From: Eledone cirrhosa
Lineage: Eukaryota
Assembly (NCBI GenBank): GCA_964016885.1
Contig: OZ024742.1
Span: forward strand, 47,554,001 to 47,618,000
DNA: 64,000 bases
Direction: 5' to 3'
The stretch's first letter is position 1. Each line of letters starts with the position of its first letter. This document shows positions 50,835 through 62,999 of this stretch, piece after piece. The position numbers and the translations under genes were made by a program. The notes beneath the pieces were generated by a model. That model searched no databases and had not been told where the DNA came from. It saw only the letters and a list, made by a program, of their open reading frames with translations.

Positions 50835-53800
50835 TCATTCCAAAGCCTCTGGATAAACAACATTCTTGGTTTTGCCCTGTGGTGCCACAATGAACAGACA
50901 ATCAGTGTTCTCAACCCTTATTTTGCCAACATAGATTTGACCATGTGAAAAGGCAGGATCTGCCAGATTCAACCCAACGACTTTTAATGATTGCCCTTGC
51001 GATTTATTAATGGTCATGGCAAAACTGAGCCTGATCAGAAATTGAATGTCTTTGAAATTCAAATCAGTTGGCTTCGGAGGCAAATTAGTTGGCTTCGGAG
51101 GTATTCTGGGAATGAAACAATTGTCACCAGCAAATTTTCCTGACATGATTGCAACTTCTAGAACATTGGACATCATATTTTTGATGATGAGTCTTGTCCC
51201 ATTAACAAGTTTTGGAGGATCCAGATTGCGAAGTAGCATAACCGATGCTCTAAGCTTCAGTATCAGGTTGTGTGGAGGAATTCCCGCTTGTTCAAGACTG
51301 TTCAAAAATTTAGTTGGATAGATTAGAACCTAGTCTTTTTAAGTGATTGTGTCAACTGATTTGTTGCATATTTTCTCTCCCGGTAACATCTCCAGCAGCC
51401 TTCTGTGGATTTCTTTCACAGCAACATTTGTAGGTGCTAAAATTGCTGGTTCACAGAGCCATTTCGGCTCACATTGCCTGGTTTGAATGTTTGGAAATAT
51501 TCTCGCAATCAGTTCTTGTTCTGTGTCAATGATATGGCCAAATGACAACTGAATATGGTAATTGGAGTCCTTTTCAAGAAGTCCATTTCCAAATGTAAGT
51601 AATTGGATGGCAAACTCACTGACACCTTTGTCCCCAGTTAAATGCACTCGCATGTTGGTTGTAAGGCTCAGCAGCTGAAACTGGGACCAGGGATAGGATG
51701 TTTTCAGACAGGCATTGACCTGATCAGCTCGAGTCCCTCGAAAATTTACAGGCAGAGTTTGTCTGAAATCACCAGCAAGAACCATTGTCACCGCTCCCAT
51801 TATATAACTATTTTCTCTCAGATCCGTTATCGTCCGGTCCAAAGCTTCAATTGCTCCTTTATGGTTCATAGTAGCTTCATGCCAAATTATCATCTTGCAT
51901 GTTTGCAGAAGATTTCCCTTGGGTGAGTTCTTCTTGATGTTGCAAAAAGATTGTTCATGCCGTATGAGATCTATGGGCAGCTTAAACATGGAGTGTGCAG
52001 TTCTTCCTCCATCCAGAAGTGTTACTGCAATGCCACTTGAAGCCACAGCAAGGGCAATACGTTGCTTTTGGCGAACTTTTGCAAGCAGGAGGTTTAGGAG
52101 GAATGTCTTGCCTGTGTCAGCTGGAGCATCGATGAAGATGTCATTTTGAATGTTTTCGATGATGTTGTGGTAGGCGTATTTCTGGTCATCCATCAATCGA
52201 GGTTCATTTTCATCCACAAACTTACGCAATGCTTGAATATCGTAGTTTGTCTCCTGAAAAATGCCTTGTGCTACCTCCATTTCTTCATCTGGTTCTGGCA
52301 TCCCGCTGTTAGCTAATGTGCTATTCATTGGCTGAACTCGATGGGACAGGTCACAGAGAGCATGATTGTAAATCCAGGGGGTATATTCCATATACACATT
52401 GCCATGATGGCTTCGGGCTAGGTTTAGATTGTCGTCCGACATATTGTTTTTATACTCCTGCCAGAGTAGATGAGCTTCATCAATTGCACATGCTATGAGC
52501 ATAGTAGCAAATAATTGTTTTATTTGACTCGCTACTTGAGTGATTGCTGCTTCTTCTAGGCACTTCTTCCAGTGTCCATTGTCATGCAGGAGTCCATGCT
52601 GTTTACATGCTTCTTGCTATGTTGCGCACTCCCTTCCTCTGAAGCACCTAAGGTCCTCAAATGACGTTGGTCCTCGAAGAGTATGAAGAAGTTGCCGTAA
52701 ATAAAAACATTCTCTGTTGTTGGGATGGACATTGTGAACACGCCTAATAGCATCACTTAACTTGACTTCATGACCTTCCACTAAATGACCATGCTTTCTT
52801 CGATTCCAGGTCTTGCAATTGGTCCAGGTGTAGTATGTTGGGACTTCAGCATATAGGAGGGATCGAGCAAATTCATCATTCTGGCAGAGTTTAAAGAAAG
52901 CAGTTAGGGTAGTGTCATGTGATGCCTGTGCGAACTGATGAGCAGTGATCTCAGTGAAGTACACTCTCTGTCCATTTTGCAGATGGACTGCATGGTTGAC
53001 CACTGTTGGGTGGCGTTGGTAGATATCAAATCCAAAGATTCGGCCGAAAACTTATGTGCTGGAGATGTATCGACCTCTTTGATACCGTTTGACCTCATCC
53101 AGCTCACCATCATTGAGTTCTTTGTCAGTAATAAAGGTAGCCATGTCACTGCCCTTGTTGATATATTTTGTGACATATAGGATTGCATTGACGGAGCTGC
53201 AATAATCAACATTAATATGAGCTTTTAAAAGTTTACACAACAATTTGTTGTGTGGGACCACCCACTGATTGTTTATGGTCAGCTCCTCTCCTCGAACTGT
53301 TAGGCTTGCAGTATTGCCTCCATGTTCTGGTCTACACCTACGATAAAAGGGGTATCCATTATTGTCAGTCCGAGTTTCCCGAATAAAAGCTCTATGATAA
53401 TGTTTGCTGCATTTTTGATCGTTCATGCAGGGAGAGGCTGGATTGATGACTCCACATGGACCATGAATGAGTTTGGACTTGATGGTTTCAAAGTGCTCTG
53501 GATCACCACATTTATCAGGCAACTCTGCTGAAATGATCTTATCAACATCATCTGGTCTTATCTTCTCCTTCTACCAGATTAGTGTGTGAGAGTAAGGAAG
53601 ACCTCCCTTCTTCCACTCAATAGTGGTCATCCAAGCATTAAGCTTACCAAAGATTCTTCCTTCTTTTAGAAACCAGATGAGTTTTTTTTTGCTTTTCATG
53701 GAAAACCTGAGTAATAAGGTCATGTCGATCCTTTGGTTTTTGATTTTGAAATAATTCATTTGATATTTCTGACCAGTTTGAATTGCATGTACATGTAATG

Positions 53801-55242
53801 ATGGGATCTGGCTGGACAAATTTTCTGACATAGGCCATTGCATCTTGGGTACGTTCATGCATGTAACGTGGTCCACCCGTGAAGATTGGTGGTAGTATGA
53901 CTGGCTGGCCAATATTTCTTGGGTCAACATCAGAATTGATGGCATCTCTAAAGTGGATGTAGTTATCTGCCCTCAACTTAGTTTGATTCCTTCACAGAAA
54001 ACCCAATCTTTGTTTCAATTTTAGCATACATGTCTAACATGAACTGGCTAGTTACTTCTTTGAATCGCAGAACTTGGTTGAAGTGATCACGTACCATGAA
54101 ATGATAAGCATAGAATTCTTTGCAGCTGATTGATCGGCCAGTTTATTTTCCCGTTCCCGGATTGATCTGCCGTATCTGAAAATGATATCCATTTGACCAT
54201 TCCAAAAGATGAGCGGATATTGGATTGAATCATAGGCTCTATGATTTTCACAAATTCGCTCCAAATGTCCACTTCGTTTTTGCAAAACAATGTCACGTCG
54301 TTCATGCTGTTCATCAACCATTATGATTGCAACTTCATCAGTGACAGGTGCATTGAATCTGCGTTCATGTTCTGAAGCTGGGCGTATGTCTGCCCTAATG
54401 ATGATTTTACGATCTCTGGTGTTGTTCATATGCTCCAGTGCATATTTAAATACACTGACGTACATGTGATGTTGAAGCATTTCTTGTAAATTTATGACTA
54501 TGTAGAACTGCAATCCACCATGGACACTGTTACATCTTTGTTGTGCATGTGTTTCATTTCCACCCATGAAGTAAACCTGCACAAATTTGTGAGGCTCCTG
54601 AAGACCACCCATTACGTGGTAACCCTGTCCCTGAATTGTACAAGTTGTACAGAATCTAAAGTCAGTCACATTCCTGCCAGCCCCAAAAGATGTCATTTGA
54701 AAGGCAGAATTATATTCTATGATGTATTTATTGAAGTGTCGTGCTTTTAGTGTATGCTTAAGGAGCAGATTCTTAAGAAATTCAGGAGGTTCTTGTATTG
54801 TTTTAAGGCTCATTTTGCCTTTTGAGCAGCATAGACTTGGTGTTTTTGCTGCCCACTTCATGGCACCACAATACTGGCAGCATTTGTTCATTTTCCCAAT
54901 GTTGATTTGTGGATTATTGCTGTAGTCCTTTTGGGGGTCATAAGAAAAAGCACCCATCAGCCAGTTCATTTTACTTATGGCTTGTTCTCCTGCTCTAGCA
55001 GTAGAACAATGTGCTTGATTAACATTTCGTCTCATTTGCTGCTGTTCCTTAATTTGTTGTGTAGCAGCAATCCTTTGTTCCCTTTCATCCAAACGGTATG
55101 CTCGTGCTAAAGCTGTTTAGGCTATGTTAGCAGCTAGAAGGGCATGCCGAAATCCTTCACTTTCTGAAGATCGTTGTGTTTTCTTTCTCTTAGCCTCTGA
55201 AGATGACCTTACATATAATGATCTGGAACGTTTTCTAGGCAT
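50835..55242 (-). pseudogene. Helitron RepHel (HUH endonuclease plus PIF1-like SF1 helicase), frameshifted
   Basis: YNSAFQMTSFG, FTGGPRYM, EWKKGGLPYSHTLIW (decayed HUH), YVTKYINKG, DAPADTGKTFL, GGRTAHSMFK, GDFRQTLPV, FAMTINKSQGQSL, FSHGQIYV. Confidence 0.93.
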
Positions 55243-56929: not shown

Positions 56930-57250
56930 CTGAATGGTAGTATCGGAAGAGGGTCGGACGCCATGCTTTGACGCATAGAGTTACGGCCGTTGCCATTCTG
57001 AGTTCAAATCCCGCCGAGGTTAACATTACCTTTCATCATAAAATAAAGTACCAGTAATGCACTGAGTAATTGCTGGCGTTGTGCCAAAAGTAGAAACCAT
57101 TATTATTTAGCTTACGTCGCTCTACGGTCTGAGTTCAAATCATGCCGAGGTTAAGTTTGCCTTTCATCCTTAAAGGGTCGATAAAATAAAGTACCTGTAA
57201 TACACTGGGACAATTGCTGGCCTTGTGCCAAAAGTAGAAACAATTATTAT
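56930..57250 (+). mobile_element. Two tandem SINE copies
   Basis: tgagttcaaatc..gccgaggttaa...gtgccaaaagtagaaac-attattatt occurs twice. Confidence 0.85.
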
Positions 57251-58144
57251 TTCGCTTACAATTCTGACAGTTATTGTGAATATGTGCAATAATATTCGAA
57301 TTGTGAGGAGATGTTTGGATAATGTATTAAATATATGATTTTAGTGCAATTTCAAGGAGAAAATTGTTGAAACTAAGGACATTCGTTAAATTATATGTAT
57401 AAAATAAAACGAGTGCATCAGGAAATTTGAATATGACGCAACGGCTACCATTTTATTTATCAAATAATGGGTTTCATTTAGTAGGATTAGACTGAACTCA
57501 TACTGAATGACAAGGAATCCTACACAATGTTAGTTAATATTCAAAAATCAATAAATAGGCCGAAGATTATTATTAAACCTACAAATATTAAGGAAACGTA
57601 TCATATTAGATGGTGTGATTGGGAGAGTATAATATACAACGATTCAACTCTGATATTGTGTTAATCCTATATCACGTTTATCGCGAATCTAATGCCATAC
57701 ATTTATATTATGGTATATATTGCACGCACGGTTAACCTAATAACTGTTGAAATCTTGAGCTTGATATGATATGTTTAATGTAACAATTCTGACCGAAGTT
57801 AGAATATTTCTGAGTTGAAGATTGTCATTAACTCAGGCAGGATTTCCCGTGATACCAAGTCATGCGGATGATTCTGTGAATATAGAGTTTGCTATAGTGT
57901 TATTCAGCATTAATATCTGACAGTAATTAATATACTGGTTTGCAATTAAAATAAATTCCCGTAAGCCTTATGCAAGAGATTAAATGTGATCCCTAGTCAC
58001 GAATGTAAACGAATTTAATATATCTTCAAATATTCCTTCAGTTTAAAATACGGATATTTTAAAGCATGCTTAAATTCAGCTCAGACAGCGCCAACATAGA
58101 ATTTCTTGCAATATTTACGTCTCGATAAAATCAAGATTAAAGCG

Positions 58145-58290
58145 GCAAAATGGCACAAAGTCGGAGAGACTGCATTGCAGTATACGTTCCGTCTCTCTGC
58201 TCTCTGAATTCAAATCCCAGATTAGTCAAGTTTGCCTTTCATCTTTTTGAGATAGATAATAAAGTACCGGTTTAGTACTGTAATCGATTC
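58145..58290 (+). mobile_element. Diverged SINE copy
   Basis: ttcaaatccc...tttgcctttcatc...gataataaagtacc. Confidence 0.65.
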
Positions 58291-59241
58291 CTCTCTATAT
58301 CACTTCCTCACTCTCCCTTTCTCTCATCTGCTGTGTCTAAACATGGAGAAGAGATGGGTTCTGCCAGGTTAAAAATGGTCAAGATCCACCATAATTCAAT
58401 ACATTGCCCATATGACACCACCAGGCGTTACGGGTACATATATACATCATTACCAAACCCAGAAGCATTGACTTAATACTCCCAAACGAGCGTGGAGTAA
58501 TTTATTCTGAATATAGGAGATACATGGAACAGAACATGACTACTCCATTATCATATCAGCTATAGTTTCTAGATTTTAGATTCGAAATATTTCCCTCTGT
58601 ATACAAGTCAGCCATGCTTACTATGATCATCCTTTTGCTTGTATTGCAATCGTCCACCGATAGGAATAAGCCAACTTAATCAGTGCTACTTTAACATGGA
58701 TATGTCTATTATAATTACGCTTCAAAACCAAAGCACCTATCTTAGTTCGCAAAAAGAAAACAATTGATTTTGTAACGAGGAGTACTATAAGCTTTACCCT
58801 ATTAAATATTATTGTAAGAAACAACGACGACTTTTCGATAATTTGAATCTCCAATCGTCAGCAGTCCTCCTATTTTGAAATACAAACAGCTTTAATAAAA
58901 AATGTTCTACTACTATTGTGTTGATTATTCATTTTCTCGACAAAAATACAAAGTGACCCCCCCCCCCCACCAGAAACATATATACACACCACACATACAC
59001 ACACATAATATAAATATATTTACTTATACATACATACATAAATATATATATATAAATATAAATTCAGCGAGAATCGTATTTCGGCTAGTAGAAGAAGCGA
59101 AACGAAACGCAAAATCGTAGAAATATTGCCAAGCGCTCCAATAGTTAAGAAAACTAGAGCTAAACAATATGTTAAAATGCCATACAAACTTAAATGTGGT
59201 CAAGAAGGCATATATACATATATATATATATATATAAAAGT

Positions 59242-60292
59242 TTACATATATAAAAGTTTACATATATATACATATACGTGTTTTGCAACTGGTCACTTTG
59301 TGGCTCAATGAAAAATTAATAAATTAAATAATCAGAGCTATATATAATAAAACGTGTCTATAGAATCACAAGATAAAATATATACTATTTCCTCTCCCAA
59401 TTAGCATAATTAACTATATAAAAAATCGAATAGACCAGGCTATAAGAATGAGGCTTCTATGAAGAAATCTCCGACAAATAAGAATGAGGCTAGTTTTGGT
59501 TATTTGTCGGAGATTTCTTCATAGAAGCCTCATTCTTATAGCCTGGTCTATTCGATTTTTTATATAGTTAATTATGCTAATTGGGAGAGGAAATAGTATA
59601 TATTTTATATTGTGATTCTATAGACATGTTTTATGATATATAGCTCTGATTATTTAATTTATTAATTTTTCATTGAGCCACAAAGTGACCAGTTGCAAAA
59701 CACATATATGTATATATATGTATATATATATGTAAACTGTTATATGTAATAATATCCCATTAGGTTCAGATACAAATTTGGCTGTATTGTGTTTTGCTTT
59801 CTAGCAAAAATGCCACCAGTCGTAAGCAACTACCACACCCCTTCCAACCTGACGCGACTACGTCACGATTTTTAGCCATTTTGAATGAATTCTTGGCGCG
59901 ATCACTTTGGAAAATTTAGTGTCTAGATAAGAGCGAACTTCCTGATGAATCCGGTGCTCGAGTTTATATAATTATTACATAATTATTGGAAGACTCAAAA
60001 TACGGATGAAACCATGGTAGAGGTATTTAAATGTATACTATTTTCTCCTAGTTTATTTTACACCTAATTCTGTTTAGTTGACTGTATCTGGGTGATTACG
60101 CTGTCGAAATATTCGATAAATATTCCGCTACGGCCGACGCGAAAGGCTAGTTTTGGTTATTTGTCGGAGATTTCTTCATAGAAGCCTCATTCTTATAGCC
60201 TGGTCTATTCGATTTTTTTATATAGTTAATTATGCTAATTGGGATAGGAAATAGTATATATTTTATCTTGTGATTCTATAGACATGTTTTAT

Positions 60293-60300
<8 letters not shown>
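59242..60300 (+). mobile_element. Non-coding hammerhead element (~240-bp inverted head, 657-bp monomer, ~155-bp direct repeat) in (TA)n
   Basis: 59242-59481 is the reverse complement of 59500-59749. 59487-59640 is repeated from 60144. Confidence 0.85.
59937..60024 (+). ncRNA. Type I hammerhead ribozyme with extended stem II and palindromic stem III
   Basis: ACTTC-CTGATGA-ATCCG...GAGTTT..ATAATTAT-tac-ATAATTAT..AGACTC...CGGAT-GAAA-CCATGG-TA-GAGGT. GUA site, cut predicted after 60019. Confidence 0.85.
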
Positions 60301-60342
<42 letters not shown>

Positions 60343-60392
60343 ATAAGGAAAAGCGAAGTAGTTTCAGATGTTCAAGTCCTTTAATAATAATG

Positions 60393-60464
60393 CTGTGATA
60401 TATATTTCAATGACGACACCCGCCACACTGATCTGTGTGCGAGTGTCGTGACATCATCAGACAG
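60393..60464 (-). ncRNA. Type I hammerhead ribozyme (3' repeat)
   Basis: CTGT-CTGATGA-tgtc-ACGACAC-tcgcacacagatcagtgtggcgg-GTGTCGT-catt-GAAA-TATATA-TC-ACAG. Confidence 0.82.
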
Positions 60465-61669
60465 ATGGTTAATAATAAGGTTATGTTTCCGAGGCAATCC
60501 AAATTGAATCGACATGGAAACGGATGAAGTGTGTGCTTTTGGGTTCTTCATCCGTTCCCCTGTGAGTACCAATTCACCCCCACCGGTCTGCGCAGGCACA
60601 TGTCCGAAGGAAGTTGACCATTAGCTACCGCAGATTTCAACGAAATTCGCTTAGTCAGTTCACCCTCTCAGCCAAACAATGGCCCATCTAGGCCTGTACC
60701 ATAGTTTACTGCTACCCATCCCGACTGTGGCAGTCAGCCGAAAGCCAGAGGGGATGGGAGAGTGTTAGTTTTTACAGGTCGCAATACTACATCTCACCTA
60801 GCGTGGACAGTACGACTGACCATCAACTCATAAGAGAAAATAAATTTAATTCTAGGTATCATGGTTTTACATTGGAAGTTATGAGTGAGAGTTGGAAATA
60901 AAAATTAAAATCCTAAATCAAATATCAGAAATTATAAATTAAACAATTAAAAAATTAACAATTAGAAATTAAAAAAACTTTCAAGTGAGGTGAGTAAAAA
61001 AATATAGATTGAAGTGAGTAAATAATATGGAGAGAGATGTTTAAGTAAGAAGTTCAGAGCGGGGTTCTAATGTCTCAGTTACTCTATCCACATATTGAAC
61101 GACGGCGCCGTACATTAGAACGGAGGGTAAACTACAGTATTCAAGGCAGTAGTCAATCTGGTACTCAGTCATAATTTCCATCACATGGAACAAAACCAAA
61201 GAAAAACAGATATAAAGTACACAAAAAAAAGAACCAATAATGAATAAATGCAAAAACACAGAGTACATATATGCAAAATGATCCATATGATTGTCAATCT
61301 GTCAATGTATAGATTGAATTGAGGAGGCTTCTGTTCAAATGCGATTTGGTGCAGGAAAATAGGGGTTTATCTTAGTTTTTGTTTCCGCGTATTTATCCTG
61401 CCGAAAGTTACTATTAGGTCCGTCCAGTATCAGGGGTTTCCATCCCCATGGTAGAGAGAATTTCCAGGGGTAGCTCATGGTTGGTTCCTCTCTTCTCCAC
61501 CATATCGGTTACATCATAGAGCGCTCAACTAATTGGGGCTAAATTATTATGGTAAACATTGATGCAATTCAATTCAAGCACTCAACGTACTCTTTCCACA
61601 TAGGAGTGACAGAGTAAATATCGAATAGGAAAAGCGAAGTAGTTTCAGATGTTCAAGTCCTTTAATAAT

Positions 61670-61743
61670 GCTGTGATATATATTTCAATGACGACACCGG
61701 CCACGCTGTTCTGTGTGCGAGTGTCGTGACATCATCAGACAGC
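61670..61743 (-). ncRNA. Type I hammerhead ribozyme (5' repeat)
   Basis: GCTGT-CTGATGA-tgtc-ACGACAC...GTGTCGT-catt-GAAA-TATATA-TC-ACAGC. AUC site. Confidence 0.84.
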
Positions 61744-61830
61744 TTGTTACATAATAAGGTTATTTACTCCGTCACTCCTATGTGGAAAAAGTAGGTTGAG
61801 TGCTTCAATTGAATTGCATCAATATTTACC

Positions 61831-61904
<74 letters not shown>

Positions 61905-62999
61905 TATTCATTTATTTATAGGTGTCTCAACATATTTGACGAGGCGAATAGTTGACGTCCATATATAGTATTTGAGGTAATCAGGCAAGGTACTCCTAGA
62001 GGCGGACAAATTGGACAATCACGCATGCGAGGAATTGAACCTGCATATTACAGAGAGTGGTGAAGTGCTTCAATCACCATACCGGAATGCGGGCCGGCCA
62101 CCAATTCCATCTTTACTGATATTCTGAATAATTATACAAAGCTGATTGTTTATATTATTATTAACGTTTGAACGTAGTCTCTATAACATGTTTTTACATC
62201 TAACACTATATCCGAATAAACACAATAACCAGACGAAACATCTTTTTAAATTGTTCTAATTACATACGGGATTTAGCAAATAACAAATTGAGAATTTATA
62301 ATGGATTATGAAATGACAAATGATACAAAAAATAGAACGTGTAAACCTTTTATTCAAATAAGAAGTTCAGAGAGAACATCATTGTCCTACGGTGACTTCC
62401 ATTAATATATTAGACCTGAAAGTATTTCATACAATTTCAAACGATATCACGCTGTCTGTGACTAGCAGCAATAAACTCCATACCATACATCTAAAAATAT
62501 ATTTTAGGAAACATGTCTGCAAAATTATCTCATGTTTACAAAATTGTTGCAGAACCTTCTCAAATTAATGTAATGTTGTGAAGAAATTAACACGCAATAG
62601 GATGCTATAGGAAATTAATGTTTCGAAAATGCTTTTATACGTCACTATGGATATGTTTTTATATTGTTTGCATAAAAGAAAAAAAAAAGCTTTTGTCTTC
62701 TAAATCTATATATTTAGTTCATATGATCTTAAAACGTAAATGCGCGTCGCTTAAATATGGAGCTACATATAAAATGTCACTCATAATATTATCTGTATAT
62801 GAAGAAAAGACCCAAGGAAATCATTTTCAATGTATATGTAACCATATATATATGAATATTTAGAGATAAGTAGAGAGTAGCTATTCATTCAAAGATATTA
62901 TTATATGTAAACACGCTTGCTCTCCAGTGTGACCATTTTTATTAAGGATTTGTCGTATTTCCATATCAGGTCTTTACGCTAGGGTTCTAAATACATGTG

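Follow-up and report, generated by a model that had tools for sequence, protein, structure and literature searches.

A hammerhead-bearing repeat with two fixed 3′ ends in (TA)n tracts of the Eledone cirrhosa genome

Introduction

What kind of element leaves an inverted arm, a junction scar and more than one 657-nt unit with a hammerhead motif inside a (TA)n tract, and from what kind of RNA was it copied? The question is raised by a locus in a 64,000-nucleotide stretch of Eledone cirrhosa DNA (contig OZ024742.1, positions 47,554,001 to 47,618,000), which we call the window and in which all coordinates given here are numbered from 1.

Layout of the insertion

The locus reads, in order, (TA)n, inverted arm, GAATG insert, main arm and (TA)n(GA)n. 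The left (TA)n target tract (59206..59235) has a blurred edge with the inverted arm (59229..59481, minus strand), which runs from unit position 262 to 14 and whose outer, 3′ end is fixed end 2 of the family. As had been predicted from the sequence of the window, this arm mirrors the beginning of the unit (positions 14-262, with 96% identity over 235 nt in the ungapped part), but its outer end lies at about 59229-59236 and not at 59242; a 16-nt stutter near 59236-59267 was seen in one of 39 terminal copies. The junction (59478..59491, plus strand) consists of ATAA, the end of the inverted arm, the GAATG insert (59482-86) and AGGCT, with which the main arm starts. The main arm (59487-60300, plus strand, 813 nt) comprises one full 657-nt unit (59487..60143, unit positions 1-657) and a second, partial unit (60144..60300, unit positions 1-156) whose 3′ end is fixed end 1, so that the predicted recurrence of the monomer from 60144 is borne out at a spacing of 657 and runs for 156 nt, to 60300. 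The right target tract, (TA)n and then (GA)n, occupies 60293..60342. Between fixed end 1 (unit position 156) and fixed end 2 (about 262) the main arm contains a "tail" of the kind known from Penelope-like elements (PLEs), about 106 nt long (59642..59748, plus strand). The unit, which defines family A, is non-coding, its longest stop-to-stop frame being 51 aa. The identity of an autonomous PLE was considered for the window element and rejected on this frame length and on the lack of an ORF for reverse transcriptase (RT) or GIY-YIG.

Two families of dispersed copies

A 404-nt piece of family A gave 3026 first-look candidates in the 3.0-Gb genome, a figure that is not a copy number, and the 40 candidates that were scored are 96-100% identical; family A is a young, dispersed, non-coding family. 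Through a diverged copy adjoining one family A locus we reached a sister family B (3049 candidates), whose 660-nt unit is collinear with that of A and about 73% identical to it. Both families have the non-coding head-to-tail units and the dispersed copies by which retrozymes are recognised. We analysed 133 insertions (89 of family A and 44 of family B; 70 two-armed and 63 one-armed) from copies picked by best match and not randomly, leaving out loci with the element at the locus edge, duplicates by sequence or end pattern (which took A from 94 to 89 and B from 45 to 44), alignment pieces within TA-rich stretches and, in the variant counts, CpG sites. Arm lengths range from less than 100 to about 1250 nt, the longest arms being 1255 nt in A and 1380 nt in B, and never exceed about two units. 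Two full hammerheads are found in 5 of 160 arms (3/107 in A and 2/53 in B), and such arms, judging from their sequence, could release unit-length RNA. The window copy has one hammerhead, lacks the at least two consecutive hammerheads that serve as the criterion of an active retrozyme in the available text of Li, Clavereau and Pollet (2026, 10.64898/2026.07.22.740005), and cannot release unit-length RNA. At one locus (L061-L062) a tandem array holds five repeats of one two-armed family A insertion, TA flanks included, apparently through DNA-level amplification after insertion.

Several other repeats lie near these copies. On the right of the window copy, 60346-61836 holds a second, unrelated two-armed non-coding element in the same microsatellite, its main arm on the minus strand, with a unit of about 1280-1297 nt, a distance of about 80 nt between its two fixed ends, 911 candidates at first look and hammerhead-like cores (CTGATGA...GAAA TATATA) near 60460-60400 and 61738-61680. 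A third hammerhead-like family (L019:2674, L022:1133), with a CTGAAGA core, a long stem II and a CCACGG/CCGCGG stem III, ends in (TA)n adjoining family A copies. On the left, the minus strand of 50835-55116 carries broken frames whose motifs resemble Helitron Rep/helicase. Three related short repeats at 57000-57260 and 58206-58280, of which two form a tandem with a spacing of 131-144 nt, are presumably SINE copies.

The hammerhead motif and the hairpin downstream

The type I hammerhead motif (59937..60024, plus strand) is built of a 5-bp stem I (59937-41/60020-24), the core segments CTGATGA (59942-48) and GAAA (60008-11), a stem II domain of 59 nt and a self-complementary stem III formed by the palindrome ACCATGGT at 60011-18, with the predicted cut after 60019; the palindromic stem III and long stem II of the original prediction are therefore both present. 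A strict hammerhead descriptor matched this site and no other on either strand of the 64-kb window. Rfam gave no match at gathering score in the window, and at E<=5 the region 59000-62500 returned only chance miRNA-like hairpins and no hammerhead. In the predicted fold the monomeric hammerhead is not the minimum-energy structure, and only stem II persists in the centroid; the stem III palindrome is predicted to pair in trans at -13.2 kcal/mol. Since the palindrome would pair in trans and the monomer folds poorly, a dimeric ribozyme is more likely, and a dimeric mode has been described for metazoan hammerheads in the part of PMC4209133 available.

When families A and B are compared, an intact type I core with its stems is found in each unit, as in retrozymes: the core is invariant, the loop of stem II differs by a 10-nt indel, and all five pairs of stem I are kept, one of them through a double change. 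A long, irregular RNA hairpin is predicted (60020..60269, plus strand), starting at the cut site and stopping some 30 nt short of fixed end 1. Over the stems and this hairpin, 98.2% of the 876 cells of the A/B alignment pair, against 41-46% in slid controls, and double changes occur in 8 of 73 pairs, against 0-1 in the controls, a covariation that comes from two families only and from a structure taken from that very alignment. Set against shuffled sequences, the stability of the hairpin gives z = -3.66 in A and z = -0.93 in B, the latter being no more stable than the shuffles.

Two fixed 3′ ends, one for each arm

In the 133 insertions, 188 of 203 arm 3′ ends (124/134 in A, 64/69 in B) fall at one or other of two fixed sites separated by about 100 nt, at unit position 156 or 240-273 in A and 405 or 490-505 in B. 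These ends are mostly followed by (TA)n, and the 5′ ends are scattered; the preference for (TA)n or AT-rich targets was judged by eye from the flanks, with no tally, and target-site duplications are unreadable inside (TA)n. Because the 3′ ends are fixed and the 5′ ends variable, position 59487, which had been taken for the start of the monomer, is the 5′ truncation point of the window copy and not a natural start. For the same reason the circular permutation of start points, proposed beforehand as the mark of a circular template, does not describe these copies, in which the 5′ ends alone vary.

The two sites are used in pairs. One arm ends at each site in 56 of the 57 classifiable two-armed insertions, with end 2 used twice in the remaining one and end 1 twice in none (P=2.6e-12 on the first 44 insertions); in the other 13 of the 70 two-armed insertions one end lies elsewhere. 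The window copy follows the rule, with its inverted arm ending at unit position 262 and its main arm at 156. Rare variants common to opposite arms amount to 3.2 (A) and 3.4 (B) per kb, compared with 0.34 and 0.19 between insertions, and this sharing, about ten times higher between arms, therefore points to one template per insertion. In 9 of the 70 two-armed insertions, against 4.2 expected (P=0.023), no more than 25 nt separate the 5′ ends of the two arms, although one of these nine is probably an alignment break.

An open frame beside one family A copy and a second fragment led us to two families of the same genome, with proteins of 1217 aa and 794 aa, which we take to be PLE-like from their layout and from RT and GIY-YIG motifs. 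Pfam returned no family for the 1217-aa protein or for a 124-aa piece of the 794-aa family, and a PDB search with the 794-aa protein found nothing significant. The autonomous 794-aa family (L118-L122, L255-L262) served as a control: it has two fixed ends 118 nt apart, followed by (TA)n, and among the eight two-armed copies fetched, seven were readable, five with one of each end and two, near-identical to one another, with the same end twice. It also carries a hammerhead-like core upstream of the ORF. The 1217-aa family (L083-L085), likewise autonomous, is abundant and very young. It has an intact frame and an asparagine-rich insert, and its 4.13-kb units, 99-100% alike, are arranged in tandem; the descriptor found no hammerhead in it. 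Neither of these two abundant families, the ones compared, shares sequence with our unit beyond AT-rich noise, so an autonomous partner was not recognised between them. The PLE signature, that is two fixed 3′ ends, a tail at one end only, 5′ truncation and an inverted arm, is nonetheless found in full in families A and B, and the fixed ends used one of each, as in an autonomous PLE, lead us to regard these families as a non-autonomous PLE-type retrozyme and not as a MITE.

Reading through and stopping at the predicted cut

A linear monomer cut at the hammerhead would cap the arms at 280 or 386 nt. In 91 cases an arm continues across the predicted cut, so the template exceeded a single cut monomer in length, and to this extent the circular or multimeric RNA proposed earlier finds support; a circle is allowed by this evidence but not singled out by it. 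When only passes at risk are counted, these 91 read-throughs stand beside 10 stops at -2..+5 of the cut, against 2.3 expected, and the excess is found in each family (6 against 1.5 in A, P=0.004; 4 against 0.8 in B, P=0.011). The nine most enriched 8-nt windows of 5′ ends all start between -3 and +9 of the cut, 13 5′ ends lie at 0..+9 against one at -10..-1, and two family B arms start exactly at the first base past the predicted cut. Measured against the higher local rate just downstream, the stops at the cut remain in excess (P=0.004), only four of the ten lying within 1 nt of it and the excess reaching to about +16. A first test, on a sample biased to site-crossing arms, had shown no excess (3 against 2.7); it came up in less biased samples and with left-truncation, two of the locus searches having targeted the cut-site question. 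Seven two-armed insertions include an arm that stops at the cut, and in two of them (L134/L224, L166/L202) its partner reads across.

Taken as genomic footprints, these stops suggest in-vivo cleavage of a minority of templates, and we read them as putative run-off on self-cut RNA followed by slight trimming. The rival reading is that the enzyme stalled, either where the ribozyme folds or where RNA ends had been ligated, and stalling at the fold could account for part of the excess. The site itself reads TA|GAGGTATT exactly in 47 copies of family A, the others differing by substitutions, and no template-jump scars were seen there in family A copies. At the second position past the predicted cut, family B (L088:1501-2160 and related loci) carries A, G or C, and the base changes from lap to lap in L090 and from one arm to the opposite one in L105; in A this position is nearly constant. 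An A-to-G excess as a mark of the RNA stage was not found (52 against 57 T-to-C in A, 22 against 32 in B).

The junction between the arms

The letters 59478-59491 (ATAAGAATGAGGCT) are identical over 14 nt to 59442-59455, and the predicted re-copy, joined to the main arm via AGGCT, is indeed there. The word "template-switch scar" attached to it holds for the templated re-copying; host end joining fits the letters equally well, so the scar is no proof of a switch by the reverse transcriptase. It can be read as a slip of the end of the inverted arm from ATAA at unit position 14 back to ATAA at unit position 50, or as a snap-back of the end of the main arm, and a new microhomology arises under either reading. 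Loop-out and snap-back are the two routes given for synthesis-dependent microhomology-mediated end joining in the text of PMC5728401 available, with which our junction shares the primer repeat, the limited re-copying, the new microhomology and an insert that duplicates nearby sequence; that pathway repairs DNA breaks, whereas the ends joined here would be cDNAs. Slippage on an RNA template predicts the same junction letters. Overall, among 54 junctions there are 33 with an overlap of 1-35 nt, 3 blunt ones and 18 with a gap, several of the gaps being mere alignment breaks at the reference boundary. Clear local re-copies occur in the window copy (14 nt) and in L136 (22 nt), and some arm-arm junctions are palindromic.

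Alternative explanations

The ends and the arms allow several origins to be weighed. Long inverted repeats located at TA would suit a MITE or another TIR DNA transposon with a hammerhead-like motif present by chance, the very case of identical fixed ends that had been named beforehand as a refutation. It is ruled out by the end map, and we regard it as practically negligible: the arms measure between less than 100 and about 1250 nt, a second arm is lacking in 63 of the 133 insertions, the two ends differ, and core and stems are kept across families A and B. The copies might instead be pseudo-LTRs, truncated 3′ ends left by an autonomous, full-length Penelope-like element, as their ends are PLE-like and PLE insertions are mostly 5′-truncated (PMC8557442, in the part available). 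This seems improbable to us, since the units follow one another head to tail every 657-660 nt, nothing coding lies between them and no frame exceeds 51 aa; the long frames beside the first 60 loci are, among those listed, simple-repeat translations or belong to an unrelated element. Nor do we give much credit to an inverted arm made by self-priming on an antisense template, as proposed in PMC3846280 as far as its text was available, or by a post-insertion fold-back that duplicated the main arm. Arms with common rare variants and some palindromic junctions speak for such an origin, but a mirror copy should end where its model ends, and 56 of 57 pairs end at different sites, the window copy at 262 and 156.

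A closer competitor keeps the same enzyme and the same end rule and dispenses with the circle, the template being a linear read-through transcript of genomic tandems, usually uncut and sometimes cut; its chances, in our view, are considerable if somewhat short of even. Arms that never exceed about two units fit it, and so does the use of unprocessed RNA by a PLE in vitro (PMC11167929, available in part). Differences are also more frequent between successive laps than between opposite arms (24.8 against 20.3 per kb, P=0.015), and in the window copy a rare T, found in 4 of 137 copies of the site, is common to 59346 in the inverted arm and 60293 in the terminal unit, while the upstream unit has G at 59635. 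Against a linear template, variants private to one insertion are common to laps as often as to arms (17 in 13,364 sites across laps and 13 in 12,686 between arms, P=0.59), and three-way variant sites are few and balanced. Under purely linear copying arrays would, moreover, be expected to shrink in each generation without a long source array, and none was seen among the sampled loci. Between a circle and an uncut multimer, we lean slightly towards the circle.

Relation to known retrozymes and PLEs

Families A and B are likely a non-LTR retrozyme, PLE-mobilised and unusually long; the class is already known, and they are further members of it. In the available parts of PMC7229834 and of Li et al. 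(2026, 10.64898/2026.07.22.740005), metazoan non-LTR retrozymes are likewise non-coding, AT-rich, head-to-tail, dispersed units with one type I hammerhead each, for which a PLE helper has been proposed, not shown. Their units measure about 170-400 nt, compared with 657-660 nt here, although this is a descriptive range and the same source (PMC7229834) also puts such circRNAs at 150 to over 1000 nt. Our families differ too in arms of at most about two units, 5 of 160 with two full hammerheads, and are known here from genomic copies alone; paired fixed ends and inverted arms were not found in the retrozyme descriptions of these two sources, so far as their text was available.

With endonuclease-bearing PLEs (PMC8557442, PMC3846280) they share 5′ truncation, partial tandems, an inverted copy truncated at its 5′ end, a preference for (TA)n or AT-rich targets, and a tail that is optional and confined to one of the two ends. 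Taken jointly, PMC11167929, PMC8557442, PMC3846280 and PMC4209133 add two further parallels: reverse transcription starting at two internal sites, and a hammerhead whose helix III is small and palindromic. Unlike PLEs, families A and B have no ORF, their stem II domain measures 59 nt, and their tail, 30-40 nt in the PLEs described, has a length of about 106 nt in A and 95 nt in B. The closest mechanistic parallel comes from the accessible part of PMC11167929, where a PLE protein, predicted to be a dimer, extends both target strands from two internal RNA sites and hammerhead cleavage is dispensable in vitro; no RNA-seq reads are reported there to end at the cut of that element, in contrast to the excess of genomic 5′ ends at ours. 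The role of hammerheads in PLEs is called unclear in PMC8557442 (text available in part). The end rule itself is known descriptively, and our counts show its strictness and argue against the antisense self-priming of PMC3846280, as given in its available text. In the partly available literature searched, family A is undescribed, though its consensus may still sit in supplements or repeat libraries, and an excess of genomic 5′ ends at the cut of a PLE-type hammerhead was not found; the words "ribozyme" and "retrozyme" are absent from the accessible text of an octopus repeat annotation (PMC13282606).

Proposed mechanism and significance

We hold with good confidence that the locus is a hammerhead-bearing repeat insertion in (TA)n with two fixed 3′ ends, likely written with the help of a borrowed enzyme, a Penelope-like reverse transcriptase/endonuclease. 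Probably acting as a dimer, this enzyme would cut both strands of a (TA)n tract, and each DNA end would prime cDNA at one of the two fixed sites (unit position 156 or about 262) of the same RNA; priming at both sites would yield one arm of each kind. The two cDNAs would then halt at variable points, and short homologies, or brief re-copied stretches like the 14-nt scar, would link them back to back. About nine in ten passes would read across the ribozyme site, which implies a re-ligated circle or an uncut multimer as template, and about one in ten would stop there, as expected of self-cut RNA. The predicted hairpin between the cut and end 1 may well be a protein-binding element.

It is also possible, and we offer this only tentatively, that the copies record both RNA states in the germ line, re-ligated 657-nt circles through the 91 read-throughs and self-cut linear RNA through the run-offs, with the conserved 250-nt hairpin as loading signal. 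On the same tentative footing, a PLE dimer would read round the circles from the two fixed sites. If true, this would be the first in-vivo sign, in the literature searched, of a PLE-type hammerhead cutting during retrotransposition. The family provides countable genomic footprints, namely an end rule by which, almost without exception, the two arms take different sites, and 5′ ends that are over-represented at the predicted cut. It matters because these footprints bear on the mobilisation of retrozymes by PLEs and on the role of the hammerhead; its compact 657-nt substrate, with two defined start sites, could be used in in vitro tests.
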